Shown one piece after another: positions 33,448 to 64,000 of a DNA stretch of 64,000 nucleotides. The position numbers were made by a program, and so were the translations under genes. Within the stretch, counting starts at the first letter, position 1; each line of letters starts with the position of its first letter. The DNA comes from Candidatus Omnitrophota bacterium (lineage in GTDB: Bacteria; Omnitrophota; Omnitrophia; Omnitrophales; Aquincolibacteriaceae), in assembly GCA_030698625.1 (NCBI GenBank), contig JAUYMS010000021.1, positions 6,227 through 70,226 of the forward strand. The letters run 5' to 3'. The notes below the pieces were generated by a model, which made no database searches, was not told where the DNA came from, and worked only from the letters and a program-made list of their open reading frames with translations.

Positions 33448-34005
33448 CTAGATCTTCGAGGGTGAAACCGTAACGAGGGTTCGTGCGGGTTTATCTTGCG
33501 GATTGCTGAGCTTGTGCGGAAAAGACGCATCAAAGTAAAGCGTTTCACCCGTCTTCAATGTGAATTCCTGCTGATCAACCCGGACTTTAACTTCCCCTTC
33601 CAACTGATAGAGAAATTTTTCCACACCGCGTTCCTGACTTTCCAATGAGGTCTCGGCATTCCTGGAAAGAGTGATTAAAAGCGGAGTGATCTTTTTCTTT
33701 GAGCTTTCTGCCGTGAGCAGCTCAATCTGAACCCCTTTTTCCTGATGATGCGCCCTTCGCTCTGCGTCCTTTTGGAGGTGGGCTGTTTGTTCATAACGGG
33801 AGTCAATGCCTGTGTAGAGGTCCGCCAAGCCTATTCCGAGGACTTCCGAGATGAGTTCATGACTTTCGATGGTGCCCGTCATCACGCCAGTCTCAATCCG
33901 GGATAGCGTAGCCTGCGCAATCTTGGTCCTTTTGGAGAGCTCCACGAGGGTAATTCCCTTGTCTTTGCGCAGGGTTCGAAGGCGTTTTCCGAGGTTTTTC
34001 AGCAT
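33448..34005 (-). CDS. XRE-family HTH transcriptional regulator with C-terminal cupin domain
   Basis: HTH_3: LRKDKGITLVELSKRTKIAQATLSRIETG. Cupin: GEVKVRVDQQEFTLKTGETLYFDASFPHKLSNP. Confidence 0.8.
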   Translation of the reverse strand: MLKNLGKRLRTLRKDKGITLVELSKRTKIAQATLSRIETGVMTGTIESHELISEVLGIGLADLYTGIDSRYEQTAHLQKDAERRAHHQEKGVQIELLTAESSKKKITPLLITLSRNAETSLESQERGVEKFLYQLEGEVKVRVDQQEFTLKTGETLYFDASFPHKLSNPQDKPARTLVTVSPSKI

Positions 34006-34680: not shown

Positions 34681-34709
34681 TTGAAAGTTACCTGAAAGAC
34701 CAGGATAAC
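34681..34709 (+). promoter_or_regulatory. candidate promoter of the giant gene: TTGAAA-N17-GATAAC
   Basis: -35 TTGAAA at 34681-34686. 17-nt spacer. Weak -10 GATAAC at 34704-34709. Located in a ~220-bp AT-richer leader. Confidence 0.3.
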
Positions 34710-34768: not shown

Positions 34769-34846
34769 ATGAAATCGAGACGTCTACTAAAACTCATAGC
34801 CATTGTCACATCACTTTGTTTTCTCTGTGAGCAAACCTTGTATGCC
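34769..34846 (+). other. signal-peptide-like N-terminus of giant protein (MKSRRLLKLIAIVTSLCFLCEQTLYA)
   Basis: Basic n-region, hydrophobic core, A-x-A-like end. Read from sequence. Confidence 0.5.
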
Positions 34847-37800
34847 GATATGGCAGCGAGCGTTCACCGCTTTGCGAATGCTAGCAAAACAGAATTCGAT
34901 ATCCCTGCATCAATTCAGGCGACGCTTCCGTCCGAGCTAGGGTTTGTTGAGGAAGTCTGGATTCCCGCGGAGTCCCCTGAACAATTCCGTTCTGTCGTTC
35001 TGATTCAGGATGCCCACGGGCAGTACGGTGCCCAGAAGAATATCGAAGGAGTTCTCGAGTTTCTTCGCGAAAAATACAAGCTCTCTGCGATTTTCATCGA
35101 GGGAGGTGCAGGGCGCCTCGAACCGGAACGCTTAAGATTTTTTCAAGAAGACGAGTTCAACCGCGAAGCTGCCGATCTTTTGACTCGCGAATCCGAGATC
35201 GGCGGCCCTGAGATCTTTCTCCTACTTGACTCGATCGCAAGACGAAAACCCGTTCCGGCTTTTGGCGCTGAAGTTCCGGATCTTTACCTCGACAACCTCG
35301 AAGCTTACCGTGCCGTCATGGCTCGCAAGGAAACCACCGATCGATTCCTCGAAAACGAAATTTCTACACTTGTCTCCGACTGCTCCCGGATCTTCAGGCC
35401 TGAGCTGCAGAAGTTTTTCAAGAATTGGCTTCTCTACGAACGGGAAGAAGTCGATTTTAACCATTATTTGGATGTGATGACTAAGCAGGCTCAAGAGAGT
35501 CTCGGCGTGGACCTCAGAGATCCTCGCGAACAGATCGAATGGCCGATGCTCGTGCGTCTGGCTGAAGTGAGAGCCAGAGAGAAGGGGCTCGATTACGAAA
35601 AAGCGAATCAAGACCGGCTGCGTTTGCTTGAGTGGAGTCGGGATAATCAGATCGATAACTCTCTTAGTGGATTCCTCGAAGCGGAGATGAGGAAGGAAAT
35701 TCAGGACAGGCGCTCTTTCTGGGAGCTTTTTTATGCCGAAGCCAATCCGAAGGGGTTTGAGTTCGGTGAGTACCGTGACTTGGCTCTCTCGGAAGGGTTC
35801 CATATTCTGCGGAGTGAAATCGATTCCAAAAGACTCTTTCGCGAGATCGATCTTCTTCGTGACCGTACGCTCGTGGCGTTGGCCACCGATGCGGCCGAAC
35901 ATGAGCTCGTGAACCGGTTTCGTACCCACCTGCTCCTAAGAAAACTCTTCAAACTCGAACTCAGCCGTGAAGAGTTTGATCTGCTTAAAGATTCGGCCTC
36001 CGGCACCGTCATGGCTTCTAGTGAAGTTGAGGAAGTCTATGCGGACGCTCTTAGATTTTACCAACTGGCTCGCCGACGCGAAGACGCCATGGTCGAACAG
36101 ATTTTTAAACAACTGCAGGATGACAGCAGTCTCAAAAACATCGCACTTGTCGCCGGCGGGTTTCATACCCAGGGGCTCACGTCGCTTCTGAGAAAATCCA
36201 GAGTCCCTCATGCCGTTGTTAGCCCTCATATCCGGGAAATAGAAGATCACGACAAATACCGCGCCTCACTCATGGGCGAAGCGCCTGTCCTGGATCTGGA
36301 GCAGTATCACTTGCGCGGAATCAACTTTATCGTCGCCGACGGCGTATGGAACGGCCGTCTTCCTCAGGATGTTCGTGATCGCCGCGCCGCGGTTGTTAAA
36401 GCCGTTATTGCCAGCGTACTTGCACGCGGGGCGACACTTTTGAGTGGGCCCAAAAGGTCGGAACTGCGTGCTTCCGAACCGACTCCCGCAGCAATGGAAG
36501 CCGCCCGGCAAATGTACGATCTTGTTAGTGCTGACTTCGTCGCGACGCGTGCCATGCTCGCAACCGTTCGTGACGGAAATGTGCCGGCGATGTCAATCGT
36601 CGCCATGCGACTTCTTGACATTGCTCTTGAGGAGTTTCCCGCTACGCGGGCCGTCGACAATCTCGGTGCCTTGGGATCTTATCTGGCCAGCTTAAAACGG
36701 TCGGCACGGTCCGAGCTCAGGACGTCTTCGGGGCGTAGAAGGACCCATCGCGTTTCCGTGAAACCCGATCTGACCTATTCCGTGGAAATGGTCGAAGACC
36801 TCTTGGATCCAAAGAATCAAATCCTTAAGGAGGAAATCAGCAATAGAAAGACCTTGGTCGTACTGGATCGCGGCATAGGCGAAAGGCAAATAGCAAAGGT
36901 TAAAGATTACTTCAGGGAATCCAAAATCAGGGCTGCCTTTGTCGAACTCGAAGGTGGAGAGGCCGTCAAAGACGGAGAAGAAGGGAGAAAGAACATAGAC
37001 TTAATAGCGCGTAAAGCGGAGGCATTCGAGTTGGACCGTAAAGCGGTCATTGTGATAGTCGGAGGCGGTGCCGTGCTGGACGTGGCGGGGCTTGCGGCAA
37101 GCCAACTTCATCGCGGCGTTCCCTATATTCGCATTCCGACTACATTGCTGGCCCAAATCGATGCCGGAATTGGCGTTAAGACCGGTATCAATTACTTTGA
37201 TCAGAAGAATTTTTATGGGACCTTTTATCCGCCTCAGTCGGTATTGGTGGACCCGCAACTCTTAGCTTCCCTCGACGAACGGCAAATGCGCTCGGGCCTG
37301 GCCGAAGCCGTGAAAGTCGCGCTCATGAAAGATTCCCGCTATTTTGACTTGCTCGAGCGAGGTTATGAGGACGTTTTGGGTAAGAATTTCAGCGGTGATA
37401 GTGCGGCGCTCGATATCATGTGGCGCTCCATCATCCTGCATCTCGAGCAAATCAAGACCGACCCCTTTGAAACTAAACTCACCCGGCCGCTCGACTACGG
37501 CCACGAATACGGGCATCGCTGGGAAAGGGTAACGCTCGAGAAATTCGGGAAATTCGGCGAGGCGCACGTCGCGACCCACGGCGAGGGCGTATGGTTCGGC
37601 ATGGCGATAGACACGGTGATTTCCTGGCAGCGGGGTTATATTACCGCCGCACAGCGCGATCGCGTCCTCAACCTCATAGATGCCATTGGTTATAACAACA
37701 CTGCGGTCGGTGCGATTCCTACCTATGACTCCCGTGCTACGGTCAACGCCCTTTGGCCGGGCGTGGAAAGTTTTCGCAGGCATCTAGGCGGCAAACTCAC

Positions 37801-40800
37801 GATATCTCTGCTGGCCGCTATCGGCGAGAAAAAAGACGTCACGCAACTGCATAAGGCAGCGCTGGGTAATGCCCTGCGTTTTCTGAAGAAACGCGCCGCG
37901 GTACGGTCCGAGCTGCGCAACGGGAATAAATTGGTTTTTGCGGGCCACAAATTGACCGAAGCCGATTTGCCCGATCCTGACGCATTCCGGATTTTGTTCG
38001 GAGAGGCGGGCGAAAAGGTTGATGCGGGGCTCGACCTCCCGCAGCGCTCGGAGCTGCGCTCGACTGGCTCGACTTCCGACGAGTTTGCCAAAGAGGAAAA
38101 CTTTCTCAGGACCGAGGCCATGATTGCCCATTTGTATACGGGGCGTGTCATCGAGTCATTGAGCCGAAACCAGATTCCCACGTGGATCACCGGTTTTTTT
38201 CATGACAAGGTTGTTAACGGCAAGAAAAGAGAATCCGTCCTGACAGCGGCGAGGCGGTATTTTCGGCGCAACCTGGCCAGGGGCGTTGCATCTGTGTTAG
38301 GGTTGACGGGCTACTGGGGAGCGATCAAATCGACTGCGGCCGACCGGTATATTTTTTGGCTCGACAACGACGAAGAGCTGCAAGCCTCGGGCATGGAGCC
38401 CGTTCTTATTCACGGTGATGATTACCGCATGGACAAGATACCGTTGAGTGAAGCGCCTTCCGACATCCGCGAGCAGTTTGAAACCCTTCAGCATGCGATG
38501 ATTTTGGCGGAGCGCTTGAAGTTGGAAGACGCCGACAACCCCGAGGGAGATGCCATTGCCCAGGGAATCAGGCAGTCCTACCGCGAATTCTCAAGACGCC
38601 TCTACGACCTCGGACTGCGCATTTACGATCTGCATGAAGGTAAGGTCGGGCTGGAATTGGAACAGGTCTTCGATTTCCGCCGCCTTGCCCACCTCATGCT
38701 TGCACTCAAGGGCAAAATTCACAGCACCTATGACCGCGGCCTCATGACCGAAGCGGAATACCGTGAAGCGCATTACCGCCCGATCGCCGATTCGCGGACC
38801 CGCAAGCTTCACCGTATCGCGCTGGGTGAGAACGGCCGGCCGCGCTATCTCCTGGGCCTGGCGCATCCGATTTATGCGGAAATCGTCGAAAACGGCGGAG
38901 GGGCGGCCGTATTAGAATTTCGCCGCCAGACAGAAAGCGGCAAAATTGAAGAAGTCTCGCTTAATGAAATCGACGACAAGACGGAGTTCTTCGAACGTGA
39001 CGTGGCGCTCGACCCCGAAGTAGACGTTCGCGCTGACGGTAGCCGCCGCTACCGCCTGCATTTCGGCCGGGAGATGCGCTATGAAGAAGACTCGCATATC
39101 GATCTTATCCTTTCGGCGGACGGCACAAAGCTAACGATTGAATACGAACAAGGGGAGCCCGCTCTTTACGTCTCTATTCCTTTAACGAAATGGCGCATTC
39201 GGAACCGTTTCGTGGTGGGGGCTGCGGTTGCGCTGCGGCACTGGACCCGGGGGTGGATCAATCTTGTGCGTAGTACGCCGACCGGTCTCGAGCCCGTGGC
39301 CCTCAAACATTATGACTTTCCGGCCAAAGTGTTGATCCGCCACAAGCCGACGCCCACCAAGCTGTATTTTGTCGAGTCTCTCCTGCTCCCGTTGCTCAGT
39401 GACGAGTACCCCGAAATTCGTTATCCCGGTGTCTACGACGATCTGGTGTTCAACAGCGGTAATTTCTGGGTACGGCTGCTGCGTGTGATGCACCGCGCTG
39501 AGGCAGCGGAACCGGGCCGGAAGGGCCCGCTGGAAGATGTCAAAAACATGCGCACGGAACGCCACTTTGTGCTCGAGGACGGCCGTCTCCAAGAGCGAGC
39601 CGGCGAATCGCGAGTCGTCTTGAGCACCCACAGCCGCATCGAAGAGCTTTTCCGCTTGTGGCTTTACGATTACCTGAACGAAGTCGAAGCGGCAGACACT
39701 ATTGAGGAGGAATTTGCGATGGATTCGCGCGCCCTGGATTCTGAGCTCAACGATGTGCTCCGCCGGACCATCGAAGAAAAGATCCGAAAAGCCGGGCTTG
39801 AGCTAAATGCGACCATTCATTCCGTCAACGGCGTTCAGGCGGCAGAGGTCGGCGATCTCCTGATCAAATTTATGCGCGTTCCCAAAGAAGAAGGCGTTTA
39901 TGAATTGAGTCCGGCCTTGCAGCGATTCTATGAGGAGCGTATCAAGCCGGGGGCTGGAATGGAGTTCATCGCAGGCTCGCTTGTTGATCTGTCGGGGCTT
40001 GGGCCCATCAGGCTCCGGGATGAAGACGGGCAGGAGCAGACCATTCGGCTGGGGACTGTGCTCGTGCAGCCGCGGGCCATGAGCCTGCGCGAATTTCTTT
40101 GGCGTCTCGACGAGGGGATCGAGCAGGCGCGCGCCTTCGCCGACGGGGACCGCGAACGGGACTACATGCGCTTGGCCGAGTCTTTGCTCGAGCAATCGAT
40201 TCGAGACGATATCGCGCTGGGGCGGCAAGGCCTTGTCAACACCCGGCCGCACCGCAACTTCCATCAAAAGGACGTCTTTACGCGGCACGGAACGGCCATG
40301 CCGTTTCATGCGTCACTCAGCAGTTTGAGTGTCCGCATGGAAGATTACGATCCGGCGGGCTATTACCGGGTTCTCGATGATACGTCCGGAGGGAAGTCCG
40401 TTGTTCCGCCGCGTTTTCAAGCCACCTATCGCAAGCTGCTCGACCGGTTGCTGCCGAGTAAGAAACGGTTTGAGAGGCGTATTTTCGGCAGGAATCCCGA
40501 GAAACACCGTGTCTCGCGCACGATAGACTGGGAAATCGCCCGCGCTGCCATCAACTACATCGCAGAGCGTATGCTTCCCGTGAAGTTCCGTCTCCTGCGC
40601 GAGCGTCAGATCGAGCCGCTATTGGCCTCCGATAATGCGCTTGCGGAATTTAAGGGCGTTTCGTTTGAAACGGCGCGGAAGCGGCTGCTCGCTTATGTGT
40701 TTATGGTTAAAGAAACGCTTGCCTACGGAAAGACAGCTCACTATGCCGCTCTTGAAGACGCCTATGTCGACCTGCTCGGGGATCCCGCTGCGACGACCGG

Positions 40801-43800
40801 AGATGAACTTCTCAGACTGCTCAAGAGCAGCTTCGAGGCATCCCGTCAAAAGCACGGCTCTCTTCGCGACCCGAGTTCCCGAGATTCGCTGTTTATCGCG
40901 CTCTTTTTGAGGGATGCTACCGAAATTGTGGGACAAGGTCCCCAGCGCTCGGAACTCCGGGCGGACCGCACGCTCGGTGAAGTGCTCGATTCCATCATTG
41001 ATGACACACAAACAGAAAAGTGGACACGCGAGCGTTGGCAGGATGAATTTGAAATCGTTCTGAAATACGTTCACCCCGACCTCGTCAAGGAGGCGGGAGC
41101 CCCCGTGCCGGAACGGACGGCGCTCGAAGCGAGAGCTGTCGAGATTCGTGAGGCCGATCAAAGCGGTGTTATGACGACGCTCGTCAGCAATCTGCCGCCG
41201 CCGGGCGGTTTTTTCGGCAGCGGCGGCGCTATCGAGTTTGACCTTTTCAAGATGTTATTTACCTCTTATGCCGCGCATCTCAACCGCATCCTCAAGGGCG
41301 TGCAGGAAGATGAATCTCTCGGAGAAGTCGAAGTGCCGACGGAAATCGACATTACCGCGCCCATTGAAGAGCAGCATGAGCTTTTTCGCCATGTCCTGCG
41401 TTTGACAGAAAGACAACGCGGATACAGCATTAACTTTACGCTGCTTGTCGCGGGTCTCGATCCCGATGAGATCAATAATCCCGGCGCAGAGTACACGCCG
41501 GCCGCGGCCCTGATCCTGAGGCAGGCTGGGTTCCATGCCGCCCATTTTGCCAGTGACATGGCCCGAACCTTTCGTCCGGAGGCGGAACCTGTACTCGTGG
41601 ATCCCGAAGATGTTTTGATTATATCCCGCTTTAATCCTATTCGCCACATCACGGTCAAATCCGCTGATGGCGGGTATCCTCCGTATCTCGTGGTGGAATT
41701 CAGCCGTGCATCCGGTGAACAGATCAGCCGGTTTCAACGTATTCATTTATTGAAGGCTGCATTGCCCGACCAACCGGTTGCCCAAGAGGTTACGAGCGAG
41801 TTCGTGCGTAGTGGTTTCGTGCATGAGCTTGGGGGCGAGTCGGGGTTAAATTCCTTTGCCTTTGATTACGACACAGCTCCCGAAGAACGCGCGGCGAAGA
41901 TCGCCCGCTTGAAGGCACTCGCCGAGCAGGAACTGCTCCTGATCCAGGACCGGTACATGCCGGAGGTGACTCAGGAGACCATTGAAAGATTCGCGAAATT
42001 TGTCGGCCGCTCGGAGCAGGAAAGGCATGCCATGGCGTTGGGTTATCCGCATATTGTGCACGAACAGAAGCTCGGGCGCGAGCGTACTCACTTTGCCAAC
42101 AAGACGGGTATCGCATCCCCGGGGCTTGGTGCCAATGACGACGTTCAGACACGCCGCTTTCGCCGCTTGCGGGTGTTTTGGGAACAGCGCAATCTGAGCC
42201 GCTTGAAGGACGCCATACTCTATGCCGGGGAAGAGGAGGAGTCGGCACGTCGTGATATCTCCGATCGGGTCAGGCAAGGGAAGTTGGAATTGCCTGAGGG
42301 TGACGGCGCGGAAAAGAAATTCGAGGAGGAGGTCGCGGCACTCACCGCGGATAGAGAGCGCCTAACGGTTTACTCGCCGCTCGTGGCCCTGTATTTGGCT
42401 GCCGACGGTGATGGGAATTTTCTCATTCCCGATAACGCGGCTGATGCCTATCTCGCATGGCTTGAGGACCTCAGCAAACAAGGTCTGCAAAAGAAATTTG
42501 CCGAAGCATTGAAAGAGGCCAAAGCCGGAATCAAACCGGCCGGTGAAACACGGACCGACGGACTGATTGCCGATGAAATCGGGGATATCCTTGAGCTGGA
42601 AGTCCTCTACCGTCTTCTCTATGAGCATCTTCGAACAGCCTCATTTTTTGATCGCGAGAGCCGGTCGAAATTTTGGCTCAATCTGAACCATTATCACGAG
42701 TTTTACCGAAACAGCGATGTGACTTCAAGCCGTCTCTGGGCGCTCGCGCGCTCCCATTTTGAAGACAGTATTCGCAGCGATCTTGGCGATGCCTGGAACC
42801 ACCTGCAGGAGTATTTCCTAAAGCCTCAGGATATGTCCGCAGGCGCAGAGGTCAATGCGGCTGCCACCATGATCGCCAATCAGGACCGCAAGTTGTTGCC
42901 TGCGGAACTGCCCGATCTTCTTCGCGGCGCGACAGAAAAGATTCTCGGTTCACAGACCGTTCATCTGACGAGTGCAGCCACAACGGCAGATAGGTTGCCC
43001 GGTATTTTGAGCACTTTTCTCAAAGGTCTAGACCGCTTCGACCTGCCGGCGCTTTCGCTTGCGAAACGAGAGGCTCTGAGTCGCCGTCAGGCCTTTTATG
43101 ATGACCTCATCCGTATCCGAGAACTTTATGAGACCGGTCGCTTTGAACAGGCGCTTCGCCTTACGAATGGCTTGCTGGGTCATGGCGAAGATGCGCCCAA
43201 GCTTTCGAAGAAACAGAGGAGAGCTTTAAGGAAGGGAAAGGAAGTTGAATTGCCGGAGGCCCCGGCCGGACTGCTGGTGCCTGCAGCCGAAGAATCGTTG
43301 CGCGAGATGCAGGCGCGTTTGCGCGAGGCGATGGCAACGGCCTCGACGGCAGCTCCTCAAGCCGATGAATCCTCTGCGGTCGTCGCAGAACCGGCTGATG
43401 TCGCAGTCGTTGAGCCAAAAGCAGTTCCCGCTCCGAAAGAAAAGCGCGAGCTTACGCCGAAACAAGAATTTATGGCTCTCGAACAGATCAGTCCGGGACT
43501 TCGGAATCTCATCGGCGAAATACTGGAGCCCTCCGCGATCGCATCCAGAAGCAACAAGCGATGGATAGCGCTTCACAATGCGTTCTTCAAGTTTTTCTTC
43601 TCAGATGACGGCAGTCAACCCAATGAATTAGAAAAGCGTGCCTGGGATATAGTGTTGGCCGCTTTTAACCGTGGTTTGGCCAAGAAACTGGCGGATGGCC
43701 GAATGGTGCCCGAGATGCGGATGGGCGATTTCTTCGATATGGCTCAGGACTACGGTAAAGCGACCGACAGACCGGAGTCCCAAGCGGATATCATGGTGCA

Positions 43801-52800: not shown

Positions 52801-55800
52801 TCCGGCCAGCGACGAGGGCATGGCGCTCTATGCTATCGGGCTCAGAGACTTTATACGGCACTTCGAGGCCGGCGACTTGTCGACGGAAAACGCCCGGATT
52901 GCGGCGGCCATCATGCCGACTGTGACCAGCCTCCTTGCCCGGCTCGAAAAACGCGCCCAATTAGTTGAAATGGTCAATACCGAAGGCAAACGTCTGGATG
53001 CCGCTCAAGAAGACGTGAGGCGTCGCGTGACGGATCTCTTCAAAAAGCTACTTTATCGAAAGGCAGATTGGCTTACTCTGACGGCAGAAACCAAAGAGAT
53101 TCGCGTGCAATCAAGCCCGGTACATCCGACAGAACAGAAAAGCGTAACCCGCTATTCCGTAACCGAGAAGATGCCGCAATCAGTCGTTACCTCGGACGAC
53201 CTCCCGTCAAATTACGACAACTTAGTCTTTCGTTTGAAGCTACTGGGAGACGTCAAGAAGAAAGTCGGCGATGCTCTCGCTGACATCGGTGAGGAGCGTT
53301 TCAATACCCACCATGATCACCTGCTGGTGGGGGAATTGACATTCGAAGAGTCGGTAAGATTCGGTATTGAAATCCAGGGCCGCGGGGAGAACCCGGAAAG
53401 CGTCAAAATTACAATTCTTGCAATGGATGCGGATGTCACGATAAGCCGTCCCAGGGGTATTCGACGCTCCGAGCTCAGAATGCAGGACGACGATGATGAG
53501 GAGGATGCTAAGCTGACGGTTGCCGAGGTCGAGCGCATTCTTTCCGAAAGCCCGAGTGTTGAAAATCTATACCGCATTATGGATAAGCTCACGGAAATCA
53601 ATAAAATTCCCGGTTCGAGCAAAAACAATCTGAGCGTTCCTCCTGCGATACTTTCATCCCTGCTCCTTCATTATGATGCCGCCGAGCGCGTGCTGAAGCA
53701 GGGGCAGGGCCTCGCCATGCAGTTGACTTACATGGGCGCGATCGCGAGTTGGTATCGCCGTCACCAAGACGACATTCTGGCCGCCTATGTCACGTACGGA
53801 GACGTCACCATCCTTGAAGCCCTTCGTGATTTCGCGGCTATTTATGCTCCGCAGGATCACATAACGAGTGCTATTCAAGCGGCGATATTTGAATTCAAGG
53901 CTCCGGCGGTTCAAGAGGAGAAGGCCGTGGAGAGTGAGGACGATGTCCTGCGCTTGAACGGTTTTAAACTGAAGGTGCGATACGCCGATCTCGAAATGCG
54001 CCGCCGGGCGACGGAAGACGTGCTCTACGGAGAATGGGCGCTCGCACCAGCTGATGCCTCGAAGCTTATGGGTATTGACGGCGACCGCCTCCGGGCGAGG
54101 CGCGCGATGCTCATGAAATATTTCAAATCCTTGCAGCCGTCTCCCCATGTCATTTTTGACCCCATTTTAAGTCCGGCACTCTTGCGTTTAAGGCTTACAA
54201 GTGTGCGAAATACGGTACTCGCGTTCCCCGAGACACTCGAGGAATTTGAAAAGCAGCTCCGGGAAGAATTGGCGAAAGAGGGTCTCGCAAGTGATGGGGA
54301 ATTCTTCAAGCAGCGTGATGACCTCTATGGCCGCGAGATGTGGGAAGCCGTAGAAAACGAGATTCGCCTGGAAAGCGAGACCCGGGCCGAATCCAACCGC
54401 GAACGTTTGCACCGGAACCTGCTGGTGCAGCAATTCCGCGAATGGTTCCTGGGCCTGTCGCCGATATTGCCGGAGGAAGCCATGCCACAAAATGTTTTTA
54501 CGGATGACCGGAGCTCCTTTGTTGTTCCCTTTGACGTCGTGCGCCATGAATCCCGCGCGACACTCTCGATCGCACCCAGGTTTCGCAAGGATGAGAACGG
54601 TGAGCCCCGCACGATTTGGCTGCGTGCGGCGGAGCACCCCGTGACCCGCGAAAAGATGATCACGCTTCACCTTCGCCCCGACGGCGAGGTCCTGGGTTAT
54701 GCCTTATGGGATGAATACGACCAGAAATTTCGTGGATATGAAGGACCGATGCTCCACACTCAATATGCCAATCCCGCTCGGCGTCACTTCGAGTCCTATG
54801 TCTATGATCCGTACAACGTCACACCGATGAAGCCGCGCCGGATGAAGGTTCGCGGCACGATTCGTGAGCAGCGGCGCATCACCCTGCTGCCGTCGTTTGA
54901 GGGCAAAGATTACAGCAATGTCTATAACGTGAATTTCAAGACGAAGGAATCCGTCAAGGTTGAGACTGTTGCCATTGCCGGTGAGAGCCGTTTTATCCTG
55001 CATCTGGCCGCAAAACCGGGGAGGCGGGAGCAAAAGATCGTACGCTACGCTCATGATGACGAAGTGAGGCTGCTTACTCCCGAAGACGAGTTGGTGAAGA
55101 GGTTAGCTTCCGATTGGACAAAGGAAATGCCGCGCGCAATTGCGTTGGACCGGACTAAGGCGGGCCTTCTGAACTTTCGCAAAGAGAGCGTCGATCAACA
55201 GGGCTTGACGGTGAGACTGCCCAAGGTCAAGAAGGATTGGGATCGCCAGGTATTTGTGACCTTCCACCTCCAACGCGTCGACGGAAAACTCCAAAAGGTG
55301 ATTGATGTTTATGGGAGAAACAAGAAATGGGATGAGGAAGGCCGTCCTGTTGAACATATCTGGAGCGGATATTACGACGAGGATGAGGATGCGATGATCG
55401 TCTTTGACGATTTTGAGCGGCGGCGTCTGGTCGGCCACGAGCGCTATGATATCCAACTGCATGCCTGGAGTTTGCGTTATGCCGAGCGCCCGGGGGATAT
55501 CTTTACACCGGCCGAGACTGAGCATCTGATTCGTCTCGCGACACTCGATAAGCCGCATACTTTGGAAGAGGTGTGGAAAAATTTCGGAGGTGAAAATTAT
55601 TCAATCGAGTATCTGGAAAGTGTCTTCAAGAAGCTGCAGTCGCCGCGCTTGACGCCTGCGAGGCGCCTTGTCCATGTCGGTAACAACCGGTACTCGTCTC
55701 TGCTGAGGATCCGGATTACCCGGCATAATGAATACACGCACAATCACCGGCGTTATCATCTGGCCTACGACAACTACGACCTGGAAGACGTAACATCCTG

Positions 55801-58800
55801 GACGGCCTTTGAAGATAACCTGCCGCTGACGCATTACTTTTTTGACCACAATGTCCCGACTCTCCATTTGAAGCATGCCTGGGATCTTGACGGCAAACTG
55901 ATCGGATTCGGCACGCGGCGTGTCGACGGCCTGGGTGAAAGTTTTGTCTTCGGTAATTACGGACTCGAGAAAAAGGCGCGCGTTTCCGTAACGACAGCAG
56001 GAAACCGATTCCGCGTTCCCGGTAAGATGGGAGAAGTGGTCGCCGGTGTGGTCGTTGATGGGGCACTGATGCGGGTCGATTGGTTTCGCAAGGGCACTGA
56101 AATTCATAATATCTATGACATGAGCCAGATCGGCTTGGGAATCATTCGCTTGAAAGACGGGATTAAGCCGACTCGGAGCGCGACGCGGGCCGAACACGGT
56201 GAACTGCATGCACGGACGCTGCAAGCCTTAGTGGACAAGACGTGGACCGCCGCATGGATGCTCGAAGATACCGTGCAGCGTGCTCTTGACGAGAATGTCA
56301 GTGCGGCGCTCAGTAAAAGGCAGGCAAATGCCGCCAAGATCGTCAACCTGGGCCCTGATAGCCGGGGCACGGGCATCTTAGGGGCTAATGACGATGACTA
56401 TGGCATCACCTTCGGCGTCCAATTCCAGAGTCGCGCCCATCTCAACAGGTTCCTCAAGAAGGGCGACATGACGGCGCTTGAAGAAGTGCGCCGGATCTTT
56501 GAGCGTGCAGGCATGCAGCTCAGTTTAAAAAAGAAGGATACTAAGCGCACCGAAGGAAAAAAGATTGAATACCTCGGTCTGTACCGGGGTCGGCATATTC
56601 CCGTCAAGATCCGCCTTTATGCGAGGGCCGACAAGAAAGGGAGTATTTACAACGACCGGTTTGAGAATCAAATGGGCAAATTAAAGCGTCTCCGCGCCAG
56701 CGCCTTCCACCTCAAAGAGGAGATTAAAAAGTTTAAGGAATTTGCGCGCGAGGCAGGCATCTATGGCGACCTGGGAGATGTGCTCATGGAACAGCTCGTG
56801 ATCCAATCGGGAGAGGCAACCCATGCCGGCACCTATATCCGTGGCCGCGGAACCGCGATTAAAGCTCTGGATTGGATTCTCAACGAAGGGTACGGGTATC
56901 GCGGCAAACCTATTCGCTGGGCGGAAGTGAAGAAGAACTTCAAGGTTCATTATCCCGGTTATACCGAAAACATCCTGGCCGAGTTGAACGCCAAGACGTG
57001 GAATCAGTTGCTGGAGATGGCCAATACATTGCGAGGAGAAATCGTCGGCCGCAGCCGGGTTTCGCGCCATATTCGATCGGGAGTGCGGAAGGGAAAACTT
57101 GAAAAGGGTCTGCGCGTTATTGACGGCAGGGAGTTTGAGGGCATGTACCTGCTTTCCGAGAATCATAAGCGCATCACTTTGTGGGGATATGTACGCCTCA
57201 ATATTCCGCCACATGCCAAACCCTCGGAAATCGAACTTCATATTGATCCGGCGCCGCACATTGCGTCTGACGCGTGGACGGCCTCTCTGTGGTACAAGCG
57301 TCCCTCGGTGCCCATCGACTCGGTCGTCATCTTTAGCAAGGGGCAACTTATCGAAAAGGGTCCCCTCGCGGACGGGCGCGCAGGCTTCGCGCCTGTACGC
57401 GGTCCGATACCGGCTATCAAGACAAAATTTCGCGTTAGGGGAACCGAGGCACAGCGGTCTCGTTCGGCGACGCTGAAGGAAATCAAGCAAGCCTATCAGC
57501 AGAGGCTGTGGCTTGTCAGCGGGGGAGGCAAGATCCCCAAAGTTCAACCGCTGACTATATACAATGGTGTCGAGGAGTTGCTTCTTGCGCAGGGTGGCCA
57601 AACGATCGAGATTCCGTTAGGAGATGAATTCAACGGGAAGCGTGCGCGGCGTTCCTGGGTCCTTTTTCCAGAACTTGGTCCGGATGCCCGCGGGGTCGCC
57701 TATACCAGGCGCATCGGCAACCGGACGATCAGAAAGGAATTCGTACTGTTTCAGAACGGACGATTTGTGAAGGCGAGACGCGTCCAAAGCCAGCGCTCCG
57801 AGCTGCGCCAGCACGGTTATGGCACCGCGACAGTGGATGAGATTGTTTCGGACTCGAGGTTTCGCACCTTGCGCTATGACCGTAATGATTTTCTGTCGCG
57901 TCAAACTCCGGAGGCCCCGGTTAATTACGCTGCGCTCCGTGAGAGTTTGAAAGAGCTGGTCTCATACGCGGCCGGCCATGCGATGCCCTATCGCGATGTC
58001 GATGCCCCCAGGATCCTGGTCCAGATGGGCCTCGAAGATAAAGCCCATATATTGCAATTTCTCGATCCGAGTGCTATCGATGCCGTCGATGTGTTTCTAC
58101 ACAGCCTCATCTACCGAATCCGCATTCAGTTCATCGAGACGCCGACCGGTCTTTTTAGATTGAACGGAAAATTCCGGACTTCTTTGATCCAGTCTGATGA
58201 TCAGAACTTCTACACGATTCAAATTCCGATTAAGGAAAAGGACGGCCGCGATTTGTTTAGTCCCGAAGAGCGGGCAGTTATTATCGCCTATGACATAGCG
58301 TATGCCGCGGGCCTGTCGAAGGGGATGGATGAGGAAGCCGCCGATGCCTATGCCTGGCTCTTTACGGGCCTTTACAGCGTTATCTTCTTCTCCAAGCCGA
58401 ATGCGGTGAAGAGCAAGTACGAAAGACTTGCTCGGGAACTTAAGGAATTCGGCGAGCCGCAGGAATACATGACGCGCATGACGGTGGGTGACGCCGTGAT
58501 CGAGATCAAACAAGGCGACCTGACACTCGAGGCTGTGGATGCGCTGGCCTATGGCTCGAATCCGGATATTCAGTTCGGTATCGGCGCAAGCGGCGCCATC
58601 GCGCGAAGAGGGGGTGACGCCGTATTAGCGGAAGCTGCTATGAAGCCGCGCCTTGCGCCGGGTGAAGCGACATCGACTACTGCGGGCGAGATGGCCGCGA
58701 AACACGTGATTCACGCGGCTGTTTCTGATGAGTTCCTGAGGACCGATCTCAATGTGATTCGCGATGCTACCCAAAGCAGTCTCATTGAAGCGGACCGGCT

Positions 58801-61800
58801 GGAAGATGTTACCTCACTTGCGTTTTCTGCTTTCGGAACGGGTACGCTCGGCATTCCCTATAACGAATCGGCAGACGTCATGCTCGATGTCATCGAAGAA
58901 CATCTGGCAAGTTCCGGCACATCTCTGAAGAAAGTGGTCATCGTCCTGTTCGAAACAGATGCTTACGACGAATACGTTGAGGCGCTCATGAGACGGAGCC
59001 GCGGCCGGTCGGAATTGCGCGACGGTATTTCTGCCCTGCTTGCGCAAATAAATCAGGAGCCGATCCCGCTCATTGACGGGCCGGTAATGATCATGATGGG
59101 CGTGATTGCCGTCACAGTGTTTCTTGTATATTACTTCATGGTCGTGCGGCCGCGCTTGCGGAAATGGGTGGAGGAAGAGCAAAAGAAGAAAGAGGTCAAG
59201 GCGTCGCGGAAGCGCCCGGTGAAGTCAGCGCGGCAGGATAGGCTCAATTATGCCGCCGAGCAGCTCGGGAAATTTAAGGCCCAGGCCACCGATCAGCGGT
59301 ACAGCTCGCAGGGGCAATTGAGAGATGCCCGCGATGCGGCGGCCAGTCGTTACAAGCAAAGGTTCGGTGAGGATAGCACCCATAAGCGTTTGAGATTAGA
59401 TCTGGCACTTGCCTTCGAGGAGATTATGCGCGACCGAGGTGTTGCAGAAACCACGATCGAAGCGGACTGGCCGGACAAGGTGAAACGGCCGCGAGTGGAC
59501 AAATGGCGCAAGTGGTTCCGCAAGCGCGGCACGGCCCTGCTTCTATATAGAGAGTTTGTTGAAAAGCAGAAGGACGATACAGAGCAGGCGGCACGGTTTG
59601 AATTCAAGGAAGGACAGTACCAAAAATACATCGATAAGTTCGGTGAAGATCCGAAAGACAAGCGCCGTCGGCAACTGAAAGCCTGGTTGGAGACGAGTTA
59701 TGAGAAAGCGCTGCGCCGTCGGGGTGCACCGGCAGAATTGCAGCCGGTCGTCGACGAGCCTGCCGCTGTGGTTACTGAACCGGCGGAACTGCCTGCCGTC
59801 CAGGGGGTCGAAGCTCAGCCCGAGCCGCACCCGGAGCCATCGGTAGCAGTTGCCGAATCGGTTGTCCATACGCCGGCGAAGCCGACAGCAGAGTCTACCT
59901 TGGAAGAGTTTCGCGCCCAAAACGCGGGGATATACAGCGGCATGGCCAGAGTGGCTGTCACGACGAGTTCGACCCGTGAGCGGGCCGATGAATTACTGGC
60001 TCAGTTTGATCAAGCCGTGCAGTCTGCGATAGAACGATTTGCGGCTCTGCTGGATGAAGAAGAGGCGGCTCGCTTCCGTGTCATTGCCGCTACTACTGAT
60101 TTTATTCTGAGCGCGCGCGCAACGATTCAGGATCATGTGCAAACCTTTGTGGATGCCGATAATGCGCGCGACTTGTTGAGAGAGGCTCTTTCAACCATTG
60201 ACCATGATATTCGCCGCCGCATCAGGCACATACGCATGGCCGACGACGGAACTGTCCCTGCCGATGCCGTAAGGTTCGACGATATTTTCCAGCATCCCGG
60301 AGTCACCGGTTTTCGGGCATTGGTGGATGAACAGCCTCTGCCGGAAGCTGAAAAAGCAGAGTGGAAGCCGCGCGCGGCCGATATCGCGGAGCAGTTAAAG
60401 GTTGTCTTGGAAGATCGCTTGGCGACGGGTGTGTGGAAGACGGCGCCGGGCATTATCGCGAACCTTGAGAGGGAATTACGGCCGCAAGTCGTCAATCTTT
60501 CTTTGCACGGTGATGCGATCAACCGGCATGAACGGGTGCGCGCGATTCGCACGTGGTTGTCTGTGAATATCCCGCATGAACGCGGTAGAAAGGATCAGGC
60601 CGATTACCACAACCGGTTGCGTGAGGTCGGAGACGTCGTTCGCCGATTGCGAGGAGAGTCAGACGCCATTCTGGCGGACCCGGAGCGGTTTCGTGCCGCC
60701 TTAGCCGTGCACGACGATCCGATTGCCTTCGGTGTCTTGGCGGCCAATCAGGGCGATTTTGAATTTGCCGAAAAAGTTTTAACATCACTTATTCTAGACG
60801 ATGTATCCAAGTCCAGAGAGGAGCAGGCGGTGAGCGCAAATGCGGCACTTGCCCTATCGGGACTCTACGATAAACGGGGCCGTTTCGGTGACGCGTATCA
60901 GCTAGTCTCGACTCAGGCCGCATATCTCAAAGCAGCAAATCCGGATTTGTCGGCTGCCGGTGACGTGCACGCTTCCGATACGCTCGCCAGGGTGCTCGTG
61001 ATTCGGGCGATTAGAGATCTTGAAGAGAGCCAAACAACGATGTTGCAGGAAAATTTGAGCCGTGATCCGGCAAACCGCTGGGTGGGCGGAGTCGTTATTT
61101 CATCCGCTCGAGTCATCGCAGGCATTCGCGATTTACAGCGCAACGTGGCCGATCTTTCGCTTCGCGGCGATGCCATTCTTGACCACCCGGCCGTGCAAGC
61201 GGCGCGTGAATGGCTCAATCGCAATCTGCCTCACGACACGGAAGGTGAGAGTAAAACCGCTTATGACCAACTGACCGCGGAAGTCGACCGCATGGCCAGC
61301 CAGCTTGTAGCTGAGTCCGCGAAAATCATCGGTGATCCGGTAACATTCAGCGAGGTTCTGAGTAACCTAGAAAACCCCGTCGCCTTTGGTGTGCAGGCAG
61401 CCTACGACGGCGATTTCGATTTCGCGGAAAAGGTCCTGCTGTCAATCGCGGGGCGCGACTTCCCGGCATTATTTCGGTCGCGTGCAGCAGGTACGACTTC
61501 AGAGAACGATGTGACGCTGCAACTACGCAGCACGGAGGCGGCCCGCCAGCTTGCCATTCTTTATGAACGCCGGGGACGCAGTGGCGAAGCTCATGCATTG
61601 CTCGAAGAGCAACTCGATTGGCTTTATCTGGTCAACCCGTGGCTGCGTAAGGAAGGCATAAGTGTCGGCAGTCAGAGTCGGCTGCGAGCCGTGGCGGCAA
61701 GCCTGGAAGCAACGTTGGCGAATAGCACGCTTCAATCCGCCGAACTTTTTAGAGCGCGCGGCGATCAAGCGGCAGCGCGAGAGGGTTATCGCCAAACACA

Positions 61801-64000
61801 GGCCCGCGTTGCACGCCTACCGAACTGGGAAAGCAATCGTGAGCTATTGAGTCTTTATCATCGCGCAGGCCTGGCTTTGGAAGAATACGAGGATGGGGTG
61901 CCCGAGACACCTCAGGATTTGGCGGCCGCGGACGAAACGGCGAACGACTCCGAAGAAATTGTCGATTTTGATTCACGACTGGACAGCATTTATGAAATGC
62001 TCCGCAGTCGGACAGCTGCCGGGTCGTTGAAGGCGGCCGAGATGTACGCCCATCGGGAAATTACGGCTTATCGGGACGCCCTTTTTAACAGCACGCTGCC
62101 TCCGGATGAGAAGGAAGCAAAGCTTCTGTCTTTGGAATCTGACTTGGCGGGCGCTGCCTTCAGGAACCTGCGGGCCATTGTTGAAAACGGTTACGAACTC
62201 ACCGATGAAGAGCAACCGCATTTCGATCAGATTGAGCGCTACCGGAATATGCTAATTGCCGCCGGGCTTGACGCCGAGACCGGTATTCCGGCAGAGGAAC
62301 GGAAAAACCGGTTACAGGCGATTGCTGACATGATTGAAGAGTTGAAGGTCGCACCGCTCAAGGCGGAGCTAAAAGATCTTGTGCCCGTGTTGTGGGACGG
62401 CGTACGCGAGTCATCGCGTCGCCGTCGCGGGCGCGAGGGTCAGGACCGTAAGGTGTTATATCCCGAGGACGTTTTTTCAGACCGCAGCGTTGTCGAGTTT
62501 CAAGAAAAGGTCAACCGCGTCCTTTCCGGCGATGATATCGCCAGAGAAGAAATCCTTGCCGAGTTTGACGATCACCTGGTTCAGATGGCGCACTTTCTCT
62601 GGAAGGGAATGAACGCGATGGCGGTTAAGTACATCAATAATCAGTGGCAGAACGCGACGATGGCGATGATTAGTGCCGGTAAATTATTTGCCAACGCAGG
62701 CAGGGCACGGAAGCAGAATGATAATGACGGGGCCGTTCGCTTTTATAATGAAATCATACGTATCACAAACGAAGAAGCCGATGATCGTGTGCCGGAATTT
62801 GTGAGGCGGTCTACCATCGTGCGGGCCGTGGTCGGGAAGTCTGCGGCGCTCCGTCACAACAGTAAATTTCAGGAAAGCCGCTTTCCCAGGGCCCTTGAGG
62901 TGGTGAAGGCTGCCTATGAAGAGGAACCGTGGAGCCATTTTCTTCTGACCGAACTCGGGTGGATTGAGTATCACTGGGGCCGTAATGTAACGGCCGGCCG
63001 AAGGAAGCATTTCGAAGAGGCCAAAAAGCATGCGCTGGAACTCGTTCGTCGAGCGCCCACCGACAGAGGCGGCCAGCACTTGTTGGCTTGGACCCATCTT
63101 GCGCTCGGAGAAAATGCCGAAGCGCTCGCAATGGCTCAGGCTTATTATAATGAACAACCGAACGAGTGGCTCGCCAACGACCTGTTAGTCTCCGCGCTCA
63201 TCGCAAATAATCGCAAAGGTGAGGCTGTGACGCTTGCGAGGAAGATCGATCAAGAAAGCATCGGTGATGTTACGAAACTGACTGACGCCGCGAAAATCGG
63301 CACCAATCGGTCAGAGTTGAGAGTGGCGCTCGTGGCTCCTGTTGCGGCCCGGTTTAAGACATCAATTGGATTGACGGCACGAATTGTGCGGCTAGGCGAC
63401 TCGGTTCTGGGTCAGATCATTGCGACTGCTTATGCGGAAGTCCCGAAGCTGGTGATTTCGACGACAACTCAGGATCAAATCACGGTTGATTACAGCCGGG
63501 TCTTTGAAATCACTCAGGGTGCCGAAGCCGTATTGTCGGCCGGTTTGCTTCGCGAGCTATCGCCGGCCGGCCGAGTTGAGTATGTCGATGCGATTTTGGC
63601 GGGTGCTGAAGACGCTGATCGGCACGCTTTACCCGTGATTCATTTTGCCGGTGATGCCACGTTGAAAGAAGAGTTATCCGCCTCACCCGCATTTCGTAAT
63701 CCTCTCGCTCATCAAATATTCAGTGTCAGTCCTCTGGAGGAGAGTCTTGTTGCGAACACGGTGAGCGCAAAGCCCGTTTCCGTATCATTAGATACATTGC
63801 CTTCGGAGTCGAATCCGCTGGCCGGTCAGATTCCTGCGATGCTCCTGTCGGCCGTAGAGCGCGACGGCGACCTTTCGGAAACAGACCGTTTTCTGCGTCT
63901 GCACCGTTTGACCCAACTTCAGCTTCTGGCCGCTCATGAACTGAAGGACCGCCTCAAGGGTGCTACGCCCGCGCGAACCGGCGAGCTGCTTGGGGAATTC
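34769..64000 (+). CDS. giant multi-domain protein (at least 9,744 aa, 3' end beyond window); modular or polyprotein-like, function unknown
   Basis: ATG 34769 is the first start codon after the in-frame TAA at 34706-34708. The frame (pos mod 3 = 2) was checked by hand at 35162, 36761, 40931, 42002, 46697, 49982, 53459, 55982, 57782, 58988, 60002, 63302 and 63962, and is the same throughout and protein-like. No frame-2 + strand ORF appears in the track anywhere in 34769-64000. That is expected only if this frame has no stop before the window edge, because the track lists stop-terminated ORFs only. All listed ORFs here are short (<=306 aa) off-frame or antisense. Confidence 0.85.
   Translation, partial: [9744 protein letters not shown]
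36455..36469 (+). other. RSELR motif 1 ([12 protein letters not shown])
   Basis: agg tcg gaa ctg cgt, in the giant-gene frame. Confidence 0.8.
36707..36721 (+). other. RSELR motif 2 ([13 protein letters not shown]), immediately N-terminal of the DHQS-like domain
   Basis: cgg tcc gag ctc agg. Confidence 0.8.
36767..37860 (+). other. dehydroquinate-synthase-like (sugar phosphate cyclase superfamily) domain inside giant protein
   Basis: KTLVVLDRG...[19 protein letters not shown] (Gly-rich NAD loop, ~37061). [41 protein letters not shown] (37134-37195; compare AroB PTTLLAQVDSSVGGKT / NLIGAFYQP). [24 protein letters not shown] (compare GHTFGHAIE). [12 protein letters not shown] (37577-37612; compare HGEAVAIGM). 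Confidence 0.75.
37904..37918 (+). other. RSELR motif 3 ([13 protein letters not shown]), immediately C-terminal of the DHQS-like domain
   Basis: cgg tcc gag ctg cgc. Confidence 0.8.
38045..38059 (+). other. RSELR motif 4 ([13 protein letters not shown])
   Basis: cgc tcg gag ctg cgc. Confidence 0.8.
40946..40960 (+). other. RSELR motif 5 ([14 protein letters not shown])
   Basis: cgc tcg gaa ctc cgg. Confidence 0.8.
46697..46711 (+). other. RSELR motif 6 ([13 protein letters not shown]), start of module A
   Basis: aga tcc gag ctt cga. Confidence 0.8.
46697..49996 (+). other. paralogous module A (~1,100 aa) of giant protein
   Basis: Begins [27 protein letters not shown] and ends ...[37 protein letters not shown]. 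Colinear similarity to module B along its whole length. Confidence 0.7.
49997..50011 (+). other. RSELR motif 7 ([13 protein letters not shown]), module A/B junction
   Basis: cgc tca gag ctc agg. Confidence 0.8.
53465..53479 (+). other. RSELR motif 8 ([15 protein letters not shown]), end of module B
   Basis: cgc tcc gag ctc aga. Confidence 0.8.
57794..57808 (+). other. RSELR motif 9 ([13 protein letters not shown]), N-terminal boundary of the Macro-containing segment
   Basis: cgc tcc gag ctg cgc. Confidence 0.8.
58487..58985 (+). other. Macro (ADP-ribose binding/processing) domain inside giant protein
   Basis: [25 protein letters not shown]...[18 protein letters not shown]...[21 protein letters not shown]...[31 protein letters not shown]...[16 protein letters not shown]. 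Matches the macro-domain pattern (GDIT..VDAIVNAAN, GGGV.GAI, G.A..T.G..L.AK.VIH.VGP, SIAFPAISTGVYG.P). Confidence 0.7.
59006..59020 (+). other. RSELR motif 10 ([13 protein letters not shown]), between the Macro domain and the TM helix
   Basis: cgg tcg gaa ttg cgc. Confidence 0.8.
59084..59146 (+). other. predicted transmembrane helix inside giant protein ([21 protein letters not shown]), followed by Lys/Arg-rich segment
   Basis: 21 consecutive hydrophobic residues flanked by PLIDGP and [26 protein letters not shown] (positive-inside style). Confidence 0.55.
60381..61656 (+). other. tandem duplication of a ~190-aa unit near the window end of the giant protein (units ~60381-60953 and ~61070-61656)
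   Basis: Unit 1 contains [31 protein letters not shown]...[36 protein letters not shown]. Unit 2 contains [33 protein letters not shown]...[36 protein letters not shown]. Confidence 0.6.
63308..63322 (+). other. RSELR motif 11 ([13 protein letters not shown])
   Basis: cgg tca gag ttg aga. Confidence 0.8.

Follow-up and report, generated by a model that had tools for sequence, protein, structure and literature searches.

Do the giant proteins of Omnitrophota work as one chain, or are they divided into many products? The puzzle is open for a phylum in which giant genes reach ~147,000 codons according to a recent preprint (bioRxiv 10.64898/2026.06.07.730766). We addressed it at one locus, a 64,000-nucleotide stretch (the window) of a Candidatus Omnitrophota bacterium (assembly GCA_030698625.1, contig JAUYMS010000021.1, positions 6,227 to 70,226), in which a giant open reading frame (ORF) encodes a protein with the pentapeptide RSELR at the borders of its cassettes. 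The motif makes the question directly testable. It would give a concrete, testable map of mature products, and it also serves as a rule for cutting such giants informatically before structure prediction.

The RSELR motif, its cassettes and its dialects

The last in-frame stop lies at 34706, and the frame is stop-free from 34709 to the window end, with its first ATG at 34769. Exact six-frame translation gave 11 copies of RSELR in + frame 2, all of them in this one ORF, and none or one in each of the other five frames. A preliminary reading of the DNA letters (hereafter the sequence-only reading) had listed the same 11 positions, judged them far beyond chance and placed the conservation on the peptide, and it was right in each respect. 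From the composition of the protein 0.039 copies are expected (Poisson P ~7e-24, or ~2e-17 once corrected for all 3.2 million pentamers). No other k-mer is over-represented in the giant protein. Neither the 4-of-5 forms (xSELR, RxELR, RSxLR, RSExR and RSELx) nor [RK]SE[LIVM][RK] occurs in the whole protein beyond the 11 exact sites. Across the sites, the first Arg is encoded in four ways, Ser in three, Glu in two, Leu in four and the last Arg in six. The codon choice differs at every site, all six Arg codons occur, and the five DNA strings quoted earlier are correct. Because the codons vary from site to site, selection acts at the peptide level. The two copies on the minus strand, at 12653 within a ComF-like phosphoribosyltransferase ORF (12225-12923) and at 27547 in a frame antisense to panC, are consistent with chance single occurrences.

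Three pairs or sets of sites had been proposed to bracket domains, and all three brackets were borne out (Table 1). Sites 2 and 3 enclose a complete DHQS-like enzyme, which matches PF01761 (DHQ_synthase, 2.8e-34) and PF24621 (DHQS_C, 1.3e-20). Residues 11-397 of the 399-residue cassette align with positions 11-395 of the 407-position profile NF004852 (E 1.4e-94, with a score of 317 against a cut-off of 333). The best PDB entries are 4p53 (entry name 'Cyclase', 5.5e-48) and 5tpr, with alignments that span aa ~659-1037. Sites 9 and 10 enclose a segment that ends in a Macro domain (PF01661, E 8.4e-13). It matches 50 PDB macrodomains (best 2dx6, 4e-17), whose alignments end at aa 8073-8078, immediately before the motif at aa 8080. 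Sites 6, 7 and 8 delimit two paralogous modules of about 1,100 residues, which align end to end with 31% identity (E 3e-134). Because this alignment begins at the R of RSELR in both modules, the duplicated unit is exactly one motif plus one cassette.

DHQS and Macro are the only known domains found by a Pfam scan of the 9,744 residues, and Macro was the sole match of a phmmer search with aa 1093-9744 against the PDB. About 85% of the protein (38045-57793 and 59006-64000) has no detectable relative in Pfam, NCBIfam or the PDB. No homologue of module A was found by a word-seeded search, which scored only 8,000 candidates from a 5.8-billion-protein database. A single-sequence AlphaFold2 (AF2) model of the Macro domain, RSELR and the transmembrane (TM) helix was uninformative on the linker (pLDDT 36.5). 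Two mini-cassettes of 84 and 47 residues (36455-36706 and 37904-38044) lie between RSELR pairs; they match no known family and could be spacers or released peptides.

Table 1. Features of the giant ORF and of its stand-alone relative (window coordinates, except in the last row, which refers to locus L013)
Feature	Residues	Position	Strand	Basis or remark
Giant ORF, polyprotein-like precursor	at least 9,744 codons from first ATG	34769..64000	+	open at window end
Signal-peptide-like segment (MKSRRLLKLIAIVTSLCFLCEQTLYA/D)		34769..34849	+	read from sequence; Kyte-Doolittle peak aa 6-24; positive residues before hydrophobic core
TIKI-superfamily (ChaN / erythromycin-esterase / TraB / RRSP-like) hydrolase domain	~54-490	34928..36238	+	large helical insertion
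Linker, TIKI domain to first RSELR	490-562	36236..36454	+	AF2 pLDDT 27-42
RSELR site 1	563	36455..36469	+	exact translation
RSELR site 2, opens DHQS-like cassette	647	36707..36721	+	exact translation
DHQS-like sugar phosphate cyclase cassette, complete, 399 aa	647-1045	36707..37903	+	Pfam, NF004852, PDB
RSELR site 3, ~9 residues past DHQS fold end	1046	37904..37918	+	translation, PDB alignments
RSELR site 4, closes 47-aa mini-cassette	1093	38045..38059	+	exact translation
RSELR site 5	2060	40946..40960	+	exact translation
RSELR site 6, first residues of module A	3977	46697..46711	+	translation, module alignment
Paralogous module A, 1,100 aa	3977-5076	46697..49996	+	full-length alignment to module B
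RSELR site 7, A/B module boundary	5077	49997..50011	+	translation, module alignment
Paralogous module B, 1,156 aa	5077-6232	49997..53464	+	alignment to module A
RSELR site 8, module B end	6233	53465..53479	+	translation, module alignment
RSELR site 9, opens 404-aa cassette ending in Macro domain	7676	57794..57808	+	translation, Pfam
Macro domain (ADP-ribose-binding or hydrolase)	~7910-8078	58496..59002	+	PF01661, PDB, NCBIfam macro models
RSELR site 10, 1-2 residues past Macro fold	8080	59006..59020	+	translation, PDB alignments
Transmembrane-like helix (IMMGVIAVTVFLVYYFMVV)	8108-8126	59090..59146	+	Kyte-Doolittle mean 2.49; 28 aa downstream of site 10
RSELR site 11	9514	63308..63322	+	exact translation
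Stand-alone TIKI paralogue, locus L013		2763-4991	-	same place in L016-L019, L022, L023, L026, L028-L031, L040, L043, L049, L058, L060, L066, L069

Relatives of the protein were collected through its N-terminal domain (described below). Word-seeded protein searches are nearly blind to this family, returning three fragments for the N-terminal domain even with a 45-sequence profile, and it was revealed only by a genome-contig scan and an exhaustive HMMER search. The scan, with one genome per species, gave 129 loci encoding the domain, 80 of which were fetched and analysed. The HMMER search of 1.84 billion representatives gave 6,724 matches (4,356 at E <= 1e-10), and the 150 matches listed were analysed, with proteins of up to 7,818 aa.

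R[SA]ExR occurs 290 times against 12.4 expected in the ORFs of the 80 loci that carry the N-terminal domain, and 649 times against 23.4 expected in the 150 independent representatives. In a de novo scan of 4-of-5 patterns, RSE.R was the leading pattern in 28 of the 43 long ORFs from the loci and in 33 proteins of the second set. In 189,479 aa from relatives, we then defined the motif position by position. R occupies position 1 (238; K is found 3 times against 4.3 expected and is not accepted), and position 2 takes S (238), A (52) or P (14), with the remaining residues at background. Position 3 is E (D, 5 against 3.0 expected, is not accepted). Position 4 takes V, L, M, A, I, T or S and almost never a charged or aromatic residue, and position 5 is R (K, 5 against 4.3 expected, is not accepted). 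The flanks are nearly uninformative in the family, with enrichment only of small residues (A/S/T/P) upstream and of A/E downstream. The preference for basic residues or Pro at -1 to -4, which the sequence-only reading had noted, therefore describes the window protein but not the family. The motif is missing from 48 of the 57 other large ORFs of the same loci, and the exceptions are adjacent giant ORFs on the same strand.

The sites in relatives also lie at domain boundaries, in short linker-like stretches, as had been suggested from the window protein. In five relatives every Pfam domain is located wholly between consecutive sites; these domains comprise PP2C, receiver, UDP-glucose dehydrogenase, MraZ, 2-hydroxyacid dehydrogenase, GNAT, DUF7790, subtilase (S8), phosphorylase and HEAT. 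The mean profile of 281 sites shows a raised disorder propensity only for the eight residues on each side of the motif. Compared with random positions, the flanks are less hydrophobic (P 1e-28) and richer in small residues (P 1e-23).

An all-against-all comparison of 231 inter-motif segments gave 110 homologous pairs between different proteins, in half of which (55/110) at least 80% of each segment is aligned. The pairs fall into 22 cassette families with a motif at both ends and an ordinal position that varies between proteins; one cassette, for example, is the 9th in L013, the 3rd in L029 and L060, and the 8th in L066. Among orthologous cassettes position 4 of the motif varies freely, with R, E and R constant. 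The inter-motif unit is thus the unit of evolution, and the expectation that the motif would be kept in homologues as the domains between its copies vary was confirmed by both the enrichments and the shifting cassette families. The intervals between motifs (n=735) have a median of 259 aa and a 10-90% range of 43-908 aa. A cassette of ~1,270 aa is shared most widely, being found in eight genomes at a different position in each protein, including L031 (1154-2425), L049 (1804-3075), L069 (1689-2976), L026 (1562-2851) and L028 (2322-3572); in L069 it contains a weak glycogen-phosphorylase-like stretch.

A motif precedes 11 of the 32 strong TM-like segments by no more than 40 aa, where random placement gives 13%. 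If cut at the motif, some cassettes would therefore start with their own membrane anchor. Such helices, 6-40 residues past a motif, are seen at aa 8108-8126 of the window protein and in L017, L013, L023, L007, L016, L058 and others. We rejected a sorting signal in front of a TM helix (LPXTG or PEP-CTERM style), as only 11 of ~290 sites precede a TM-like segment.

The variant of the motif tracks the genome rather than the cassette. In DAOPYQ01, both paralogous giants use RAE[L/R/K]R (18 of 19 sites), and a cassette that opens with RSEVR or RSEAR elsewhere opens with RAERR in this genome. Other proteins keep to a single variant: RSEQR (7/7), RxEIR (11), RxEMR (7), xSESR (12) or R[SA]ELR only (15/15). 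The window protein speaks a Leu-only dialect (11/11 Leu, P 2e-7 under the family frequency), as do five other proteins. Three Omnitrophota genomes without RSExR have [A/G]-x-S-L-G in the corresponding places, among them the first site past the N-terminal domain (10 copies against 1.6 expected in L014 from JACROU01, and 9 copies in P0139). GARL occurs seven times against 0.11 expected in L065, from a Planctomycetia metagenome-assembled genome (MAG). These cases suggest that [A/G]-x-S-L-G and GARL are alternative punctuation codes. Relatives that lack RSExR and have other recurring short motifs are L014, L027, L070, L009, L010, P0139 and L065. Within a genome the site changes in step across all cassettes and paralogues, as would be expected if it co-evolved with a single protein that recognises it.

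The N-terminal TIKI-fold domain and its stand-alone paralogue

The N-terminus of the giant protein looks like a Sec signal peptide, judging from its residue pattern. It is followed by a domain that the sequence-only reading had not described, and which is located at residues ~40-540 in all 150 matches listed, out of 6,724. This domain has the alpha/beta fold with a central parallel beta-sheet that is seen in Bcr135/136, EreC, ChaN, HopBA1 and RRSP, all of the TIKI superfamily. When 45 members were scanned singly, 16 weakly matched PF04187 (ChaN, 'Tiki superfamily'; best E 2.4e-5). One member matched TraB_PrgY_gumN with a weak E-value, and one each matched DUF5682 and DUF5694, which we take to be TIKI-related. 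The N-terminal domain of the window protein itself has no Pfam or NCBIfam match, and NCBIfam holds no model for this domain or for the mini-cassettes. The closest relatives of the first 560 residues come almost exclusively from Omnitrophota MAGs, on contigs of up to 481 kb.

The candidate catalytic set of the window domain consists of D81-x-H83 (D81-A-H83), E111, E168, R437 and H466 (G-G-F-H466), and these residues are 97-100% conserved in 79 sequences. The 132 independent representatives have D/E/N-x-H, with a Glu at +28 in 128 and GGFH in 129. The spacing of H83 and E111 equals that of H85/E113 in Bcr135 and H3902/E3930 in RRSP (PMC6254334); catalytic equivalence is judged here by spacing and not by superposition. 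The same structural study shows RRSP to be a TIKI endopeptidase that needs no metal, is specific for sequence and uses a 2His/2Glu set (PMC6254334), which the conserved residues of the N-terminal domain match by this criterion. In the model of the window protein, the stretch between aa 490 and the first RSELR (aa 563) is disordered. Across the family, the median distance from the His of GGFH to the first motif is 116 aa.

In 19 of the 80 loci, a stand-alone TIKI paralogue of ~740 aa is encoded directly upstream of the giant gene, in divergent orientation. These paralogues are 45-71% identical among loci and keep the acid-x-His, Glu and GGFH elements. Their ~250-aa C-terminal extension has no Pfam match. 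Of the 17 that are full-length, 15 contain T-LSELR-N-A-I-A-W at 49-74 aa past GGFH (aa 497 in L013). Possibly a relic site or a pseudo-substrate, this element has Leu for the first Arg and occupies the place equivalent to the first site of the giants. Besides the paralogue, the conserved neighbours of giant genes are ACT, exonuclease III-like and SRPBCC genes. The search for a co-conserved protease, which had been proposed earlier, gave a single candidate: no peptidase gene other than the stand-alone TIKI paralogue is conserved beside the giant genes in the neighbourhood of the loci. On the present sequence comparisons, the N-terminal TIKI-fold domain is the obvious candidate for an enzyme acting at the motif.

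In several MAG loci the TIKI-headed ORF ends and a large ORF follows directly, or overlaps it, in a different frame (L039 9469/9473, L071 9602-11539/10858 and L005 ~13,7xx/14181). The continuing ORFs sometimes carry motifs. A frameshift in the assembly, a split gene or giant genes in tandem could each explain these cases.

Proposed cleavage of the chain and the alternatives

As far as sequences can tell, it is strongly supported that the motif is a specific recognition site, by its strictness, its boundary position and its conservation in the family. This part of the earlier proposal, a linear recognition motif that punctuates a polyprotein-like precursor, is upheld. Strictness (R not K, E not D), unconserved flanks and free codons are typical of an enzyme site. 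We lean towards the view that the motif marks where a polyprotein is processed, and that it is cleaved. The precursor would then consist of a Sec-type signal peptide, a TIKI-fold hydrolase domain and a chain of independent enzyme-sized cassettes (the DHQS-like cyclase, the Macro unit, the two paralogous 1,100-aa modules and units without an assigned fold), each preceded by a short exposed linker bearing R-S-E-L-R. A sequence-specific endopeptidase would recognise RSELR and cut the precursor into separate proteins, some of which would begin with their own membrane helix. This enzyme may be the N-terminal TIKI domain of the precursor or the stand-alone TIKI paralogue acting in trans, and co-evolution of its specificity with the sites would produce the motif dialect of each genome. 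We propose only tentatively that the protease is indeed a TIKI domain or family enzyme, in cis or more likely in trans. It is speculative to see the products as effectors that a predatory or parasitic bacterium delivers.

A wider picture, in which we place limited confidence, is a large-scale cellular polyprotein system of Omnitrophota and some neighbour lineages. Thousands of giant genes would encode precursors that are cut at R[SA]ExR, its dialects, [AG]xSLG or GARL by a dedicated new branch of TIKI-fold endopeptidases, present both as the precursor head and as a stand-alone protein, into dozens of enzymes, membrane proteins and small peptides. If true, this would be an operon realised at the protein level, possibly co-delivering effector sets to prey or host cells.

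Several observations weigh against cleavage by a TIKI enzyme. Of the inter-motif intervals, 11% are shorter than 50 aa, which is odd for released enzymes. About a quarter of the long TIKI-headed ORFs, mostly the most divergent ones, have no recurring motif at all, and the association of TIKI domain and motif is partly an ascertainment effect, as the family was collected via the TIKI domain. The catalytic assignment by spacing counts as a further weakness. Because the TIKI superfamily also includes esterases and a haem-binding protein (PMC6254334), the fold alone does not make a protease. It is also puzzling that a signal peptide would put the TIKI domain outside the cytoplasm, as the cassettes are cytoplasm-type, cofactor-dependent enzymes. 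Finally, the two DAOPYQ01 paralogues share one dialect although their N-terminal domains share just 32% identity and come from distinct orthologous lineages, each being 60-63% identical to an ordinary-dialect orthologue in another genome. A trans factor fits this sharing better than autoprocessing in cis, and for this reason a TIKI enzyme acting in trans is likelier than one acting in cis.

The same sharing of a dialect would also suit one trans factor per genome that is unrelated to TIKI. The site would then be processed by a kexin/subtilisin-like or trypsin-like protease cutting after the final Arg, encoded elsewhere or supplied by host or prey, and the TIKI domain would do esterase, cofactor-binding or anchoring work, like the non-proteases of its family. 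An Arg at the final position suits many serine proteases. An S8 cassette is present in L017, and West-Roberts et al. 2023 report S8 and C39 peptidase domains in Omnitrophota giants. However, S8 was found in only one of the five relatives scanned, no protease gene other than that of the stand-alone TIKI paralogue is conserved by the giant genes, and none is located in the 34 kb upstream within the window. The TIKI domain is the sole constant domain and carries fully conserved residues of catalytic type. We consider an unrelated protease unlikely.

Recognition without cleavage is another alternative, in which the motif would serve for repeated docking or handling by a chaperone, a translocase threading the giant chain, an assembly partner or an enzyme that modifies Arg, Ser or Glu, and the protein would be one giant multi-enzyme chain. 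Strictness, linker position and genome dialects fit a binding site equally well. The T-LSELR-N element of the stand-alone paralogue looks uncleavable and could be a bound pseudo-substrate, and the 2026 preprint treats such proteins as single multi-enzyme chains. However, docking motifs usually tolerate K/R and D/E exchange and seldom occur as one copy per domain boundary. The anatomy is that of a polyprotein, with one motif per cassette, intervals of cassette size, full enzymes bracketed within ~10 residues and membrane helices leading some cassettes, and the sole constant partner domain carries a hydrolase-type catalytic set. A docking site without cleavage thus appears improbable to us.

A purely structural linker that needs no partner, such as a helix cap or a salt-bridged hinge separating domains, is very improbable. 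R-x-E-x-R could form i/i+2/i+4 salt bridges, and the sites do lie in short linkers. Such a linker would have no need for R over K or for E over D, nor would it shift dialect in step across cassettes and paralogues, or switch wholesale to [AG]xSLG or GARL in other genomes. It would also not explain the absence of the motif from most other large ORFs of the same loci. A nucleotide repeat left as a recombination or insertion scar, which the shuffling of cassettes between proteins makes imaginable, or an artefact of chance or composition has a negligible probability, given the differing codons at all 11 sites with all six Arg codons in use, the free position 4 between fixed R, E and R in orthologous cassettes, the corrected Poisson P and an enrichment replicated in 230 other proteins.

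Known systems and genomic setting

The polyproteins of viruses (picornavirus 3C, potyvirus NIa/TEV, flavivirus NS3) have high-information sites of 5-7 residues between all mature products. Their protease lies in the same chain, and site and protease specificity co-evolve within a lineage. A recurrent site and dialects of genomes are present here as well, with cleavage and the protease being predicted. Unlike viral polyproteins, the window protein is encoded by a chromosomal gene of a cellular organism amid uvrA, panC, aspS and lptF/G. Its chain is far longer, its cassettes are metabolic and signalling enzymes, and the candidate enzyme has another fold.

The analogy between viral polyproteins and MARTX was drawn previously (PMC3153235). 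MARTX is a giant secreted protein, in which unrelated effector domains are joined by disordered linkers that are cut by a built-in protease (PMC3153235). The sequence-only reading had likened the window protein to it. The functional likeness stands, because both are very large proteins with several unrelated domains and with sites in short inter-domain linkers, but no RTX repeats or Peptidase C80 (the cysteine protease domain) were matched by Pfam in the 9,744 aa seen, the C-terminus lying beyond the window. MARTX uses a clan-CD cysteine protease that is activated by host inositol hexakisphosphate (InsP6) and accepts almost only Leu at P1, at 3-4 sites (PMC3153235). In contrast, the Omnitrophota giants have a strict five-residue motif in 11 to 23 copies, and their candidate enzyme has the N-terminal TIKI fold.

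The known TIKI endopeptidases are RRSP, a MARTX effector that cuts Ras/Rap1 between Tyr32 and Asp33, and vertebrate Tiki1/2, which cut Wnt. The similarity of the Omnitrophota domain to them is marginal at the sequence level, as seen from the PF04187 matches, and it has a helical insertion of ~250 aa. The known TIKI peptidases cut a foreign substrate once, and processing of an own polyprotein is not known for them. Only two peptidase branches, Tiki and RRSP, are known in the fold that supplies the candidate processing enzyme.

The window protein belongs with the giants of Omnitrophota, described as Archaeovorins and dockerin-type proteins (West-Roberts et al. 2023) and as a multi-enzyme class (bioRxiv 10.64898/2026.06.07.730766). 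They share with the window protein the phylum, very long ORFs, a signal peptide, occasional TM helices and many unrelated enzyme domains. The window protein has the features of the multi-enzyme class, being of Omnitrophota origin, longer than 5,000 aa and composed of enzyme families (DHQS and Macro, with more in relatives). West-Roberts et al. 2023 already hypothesised that Omnitrophota giants are cleaved into smaller products, invoked C39 and S8 peptidases, and called the cleavage points unknown. In a term search, that paper and the 2026 preprint mentioned no cleavage or recognition motif and no recurring linear motif, and the preprint mentioned no TIKI/ChaN-like N-terminal domain. Polyvalent proteins of phages and conjugative elements (Iyer et al. 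2017) also combine many independent enzymatic domains in a single chain, from which an embedded peptidase is predicted to release them by autoproteolysis (PMC5512222). They differ in being borne by mobile elements, with 2-15 domains, a zincin-like metallopeptidase and no defined recurring site (PMC5512222).

Literature searches gave no description of RSELR punctuation (only the R package varSelRF) or of PF04187 in such giants, in agreement with the earlier statement that no sequence-defined punctuation of this kind had been described in bacterial giant proteins. The system is a sharply defined new form of the polyprotein or autoprocessing-toxin theme, outside MARTX, viral polyproteins and polyvalent proteins. 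Confirmation of cleavage would make these giants the first large family of polyproteins in cellular bacteria whose sites are defined by sequence in the viral manner, and the dialects would be naturally orthogonal protease/site pairs of possible use in synthetic biology.

The genes around the giant ORF are of bacterial housekeeping and signalling type (aspS, uvrA, panC, folK, lptF/G and glgC-like), a setting neither viral nor plasmid-like, and the 34 kb upstream within the window hold only such genes. The window contains no stand-alone TIKI paralogue. A tblastn search of plasmids with the first 1,092 aa found ordinary DHQS genes only. A metagenome scan with the last 231 aa gave no match to a continuation of the ORF past the window, and the sole indexed contig with the uvrA gene of the window is 12 kb long and ends before the giant gene. 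The closest upstream gene, on the opposite strand, encodes a helix-turn-helix (HTH)-cupin regulator (33448-34005), and ~760 bp of non-coding DNA precede the ATG of the giant ORF.

The giant protein contains only three Cys in 9,744 aa (aa 17, 20 and 205). Two of them are within the signal peptide, which would leave one Cys, aa 205, in the mature protein. Cys depletion is typical of proteins that work extracellularly or cross membranes unfolded, and the relatives are Cys-poor too, with 0-8 Cys per ~3,900 aa.

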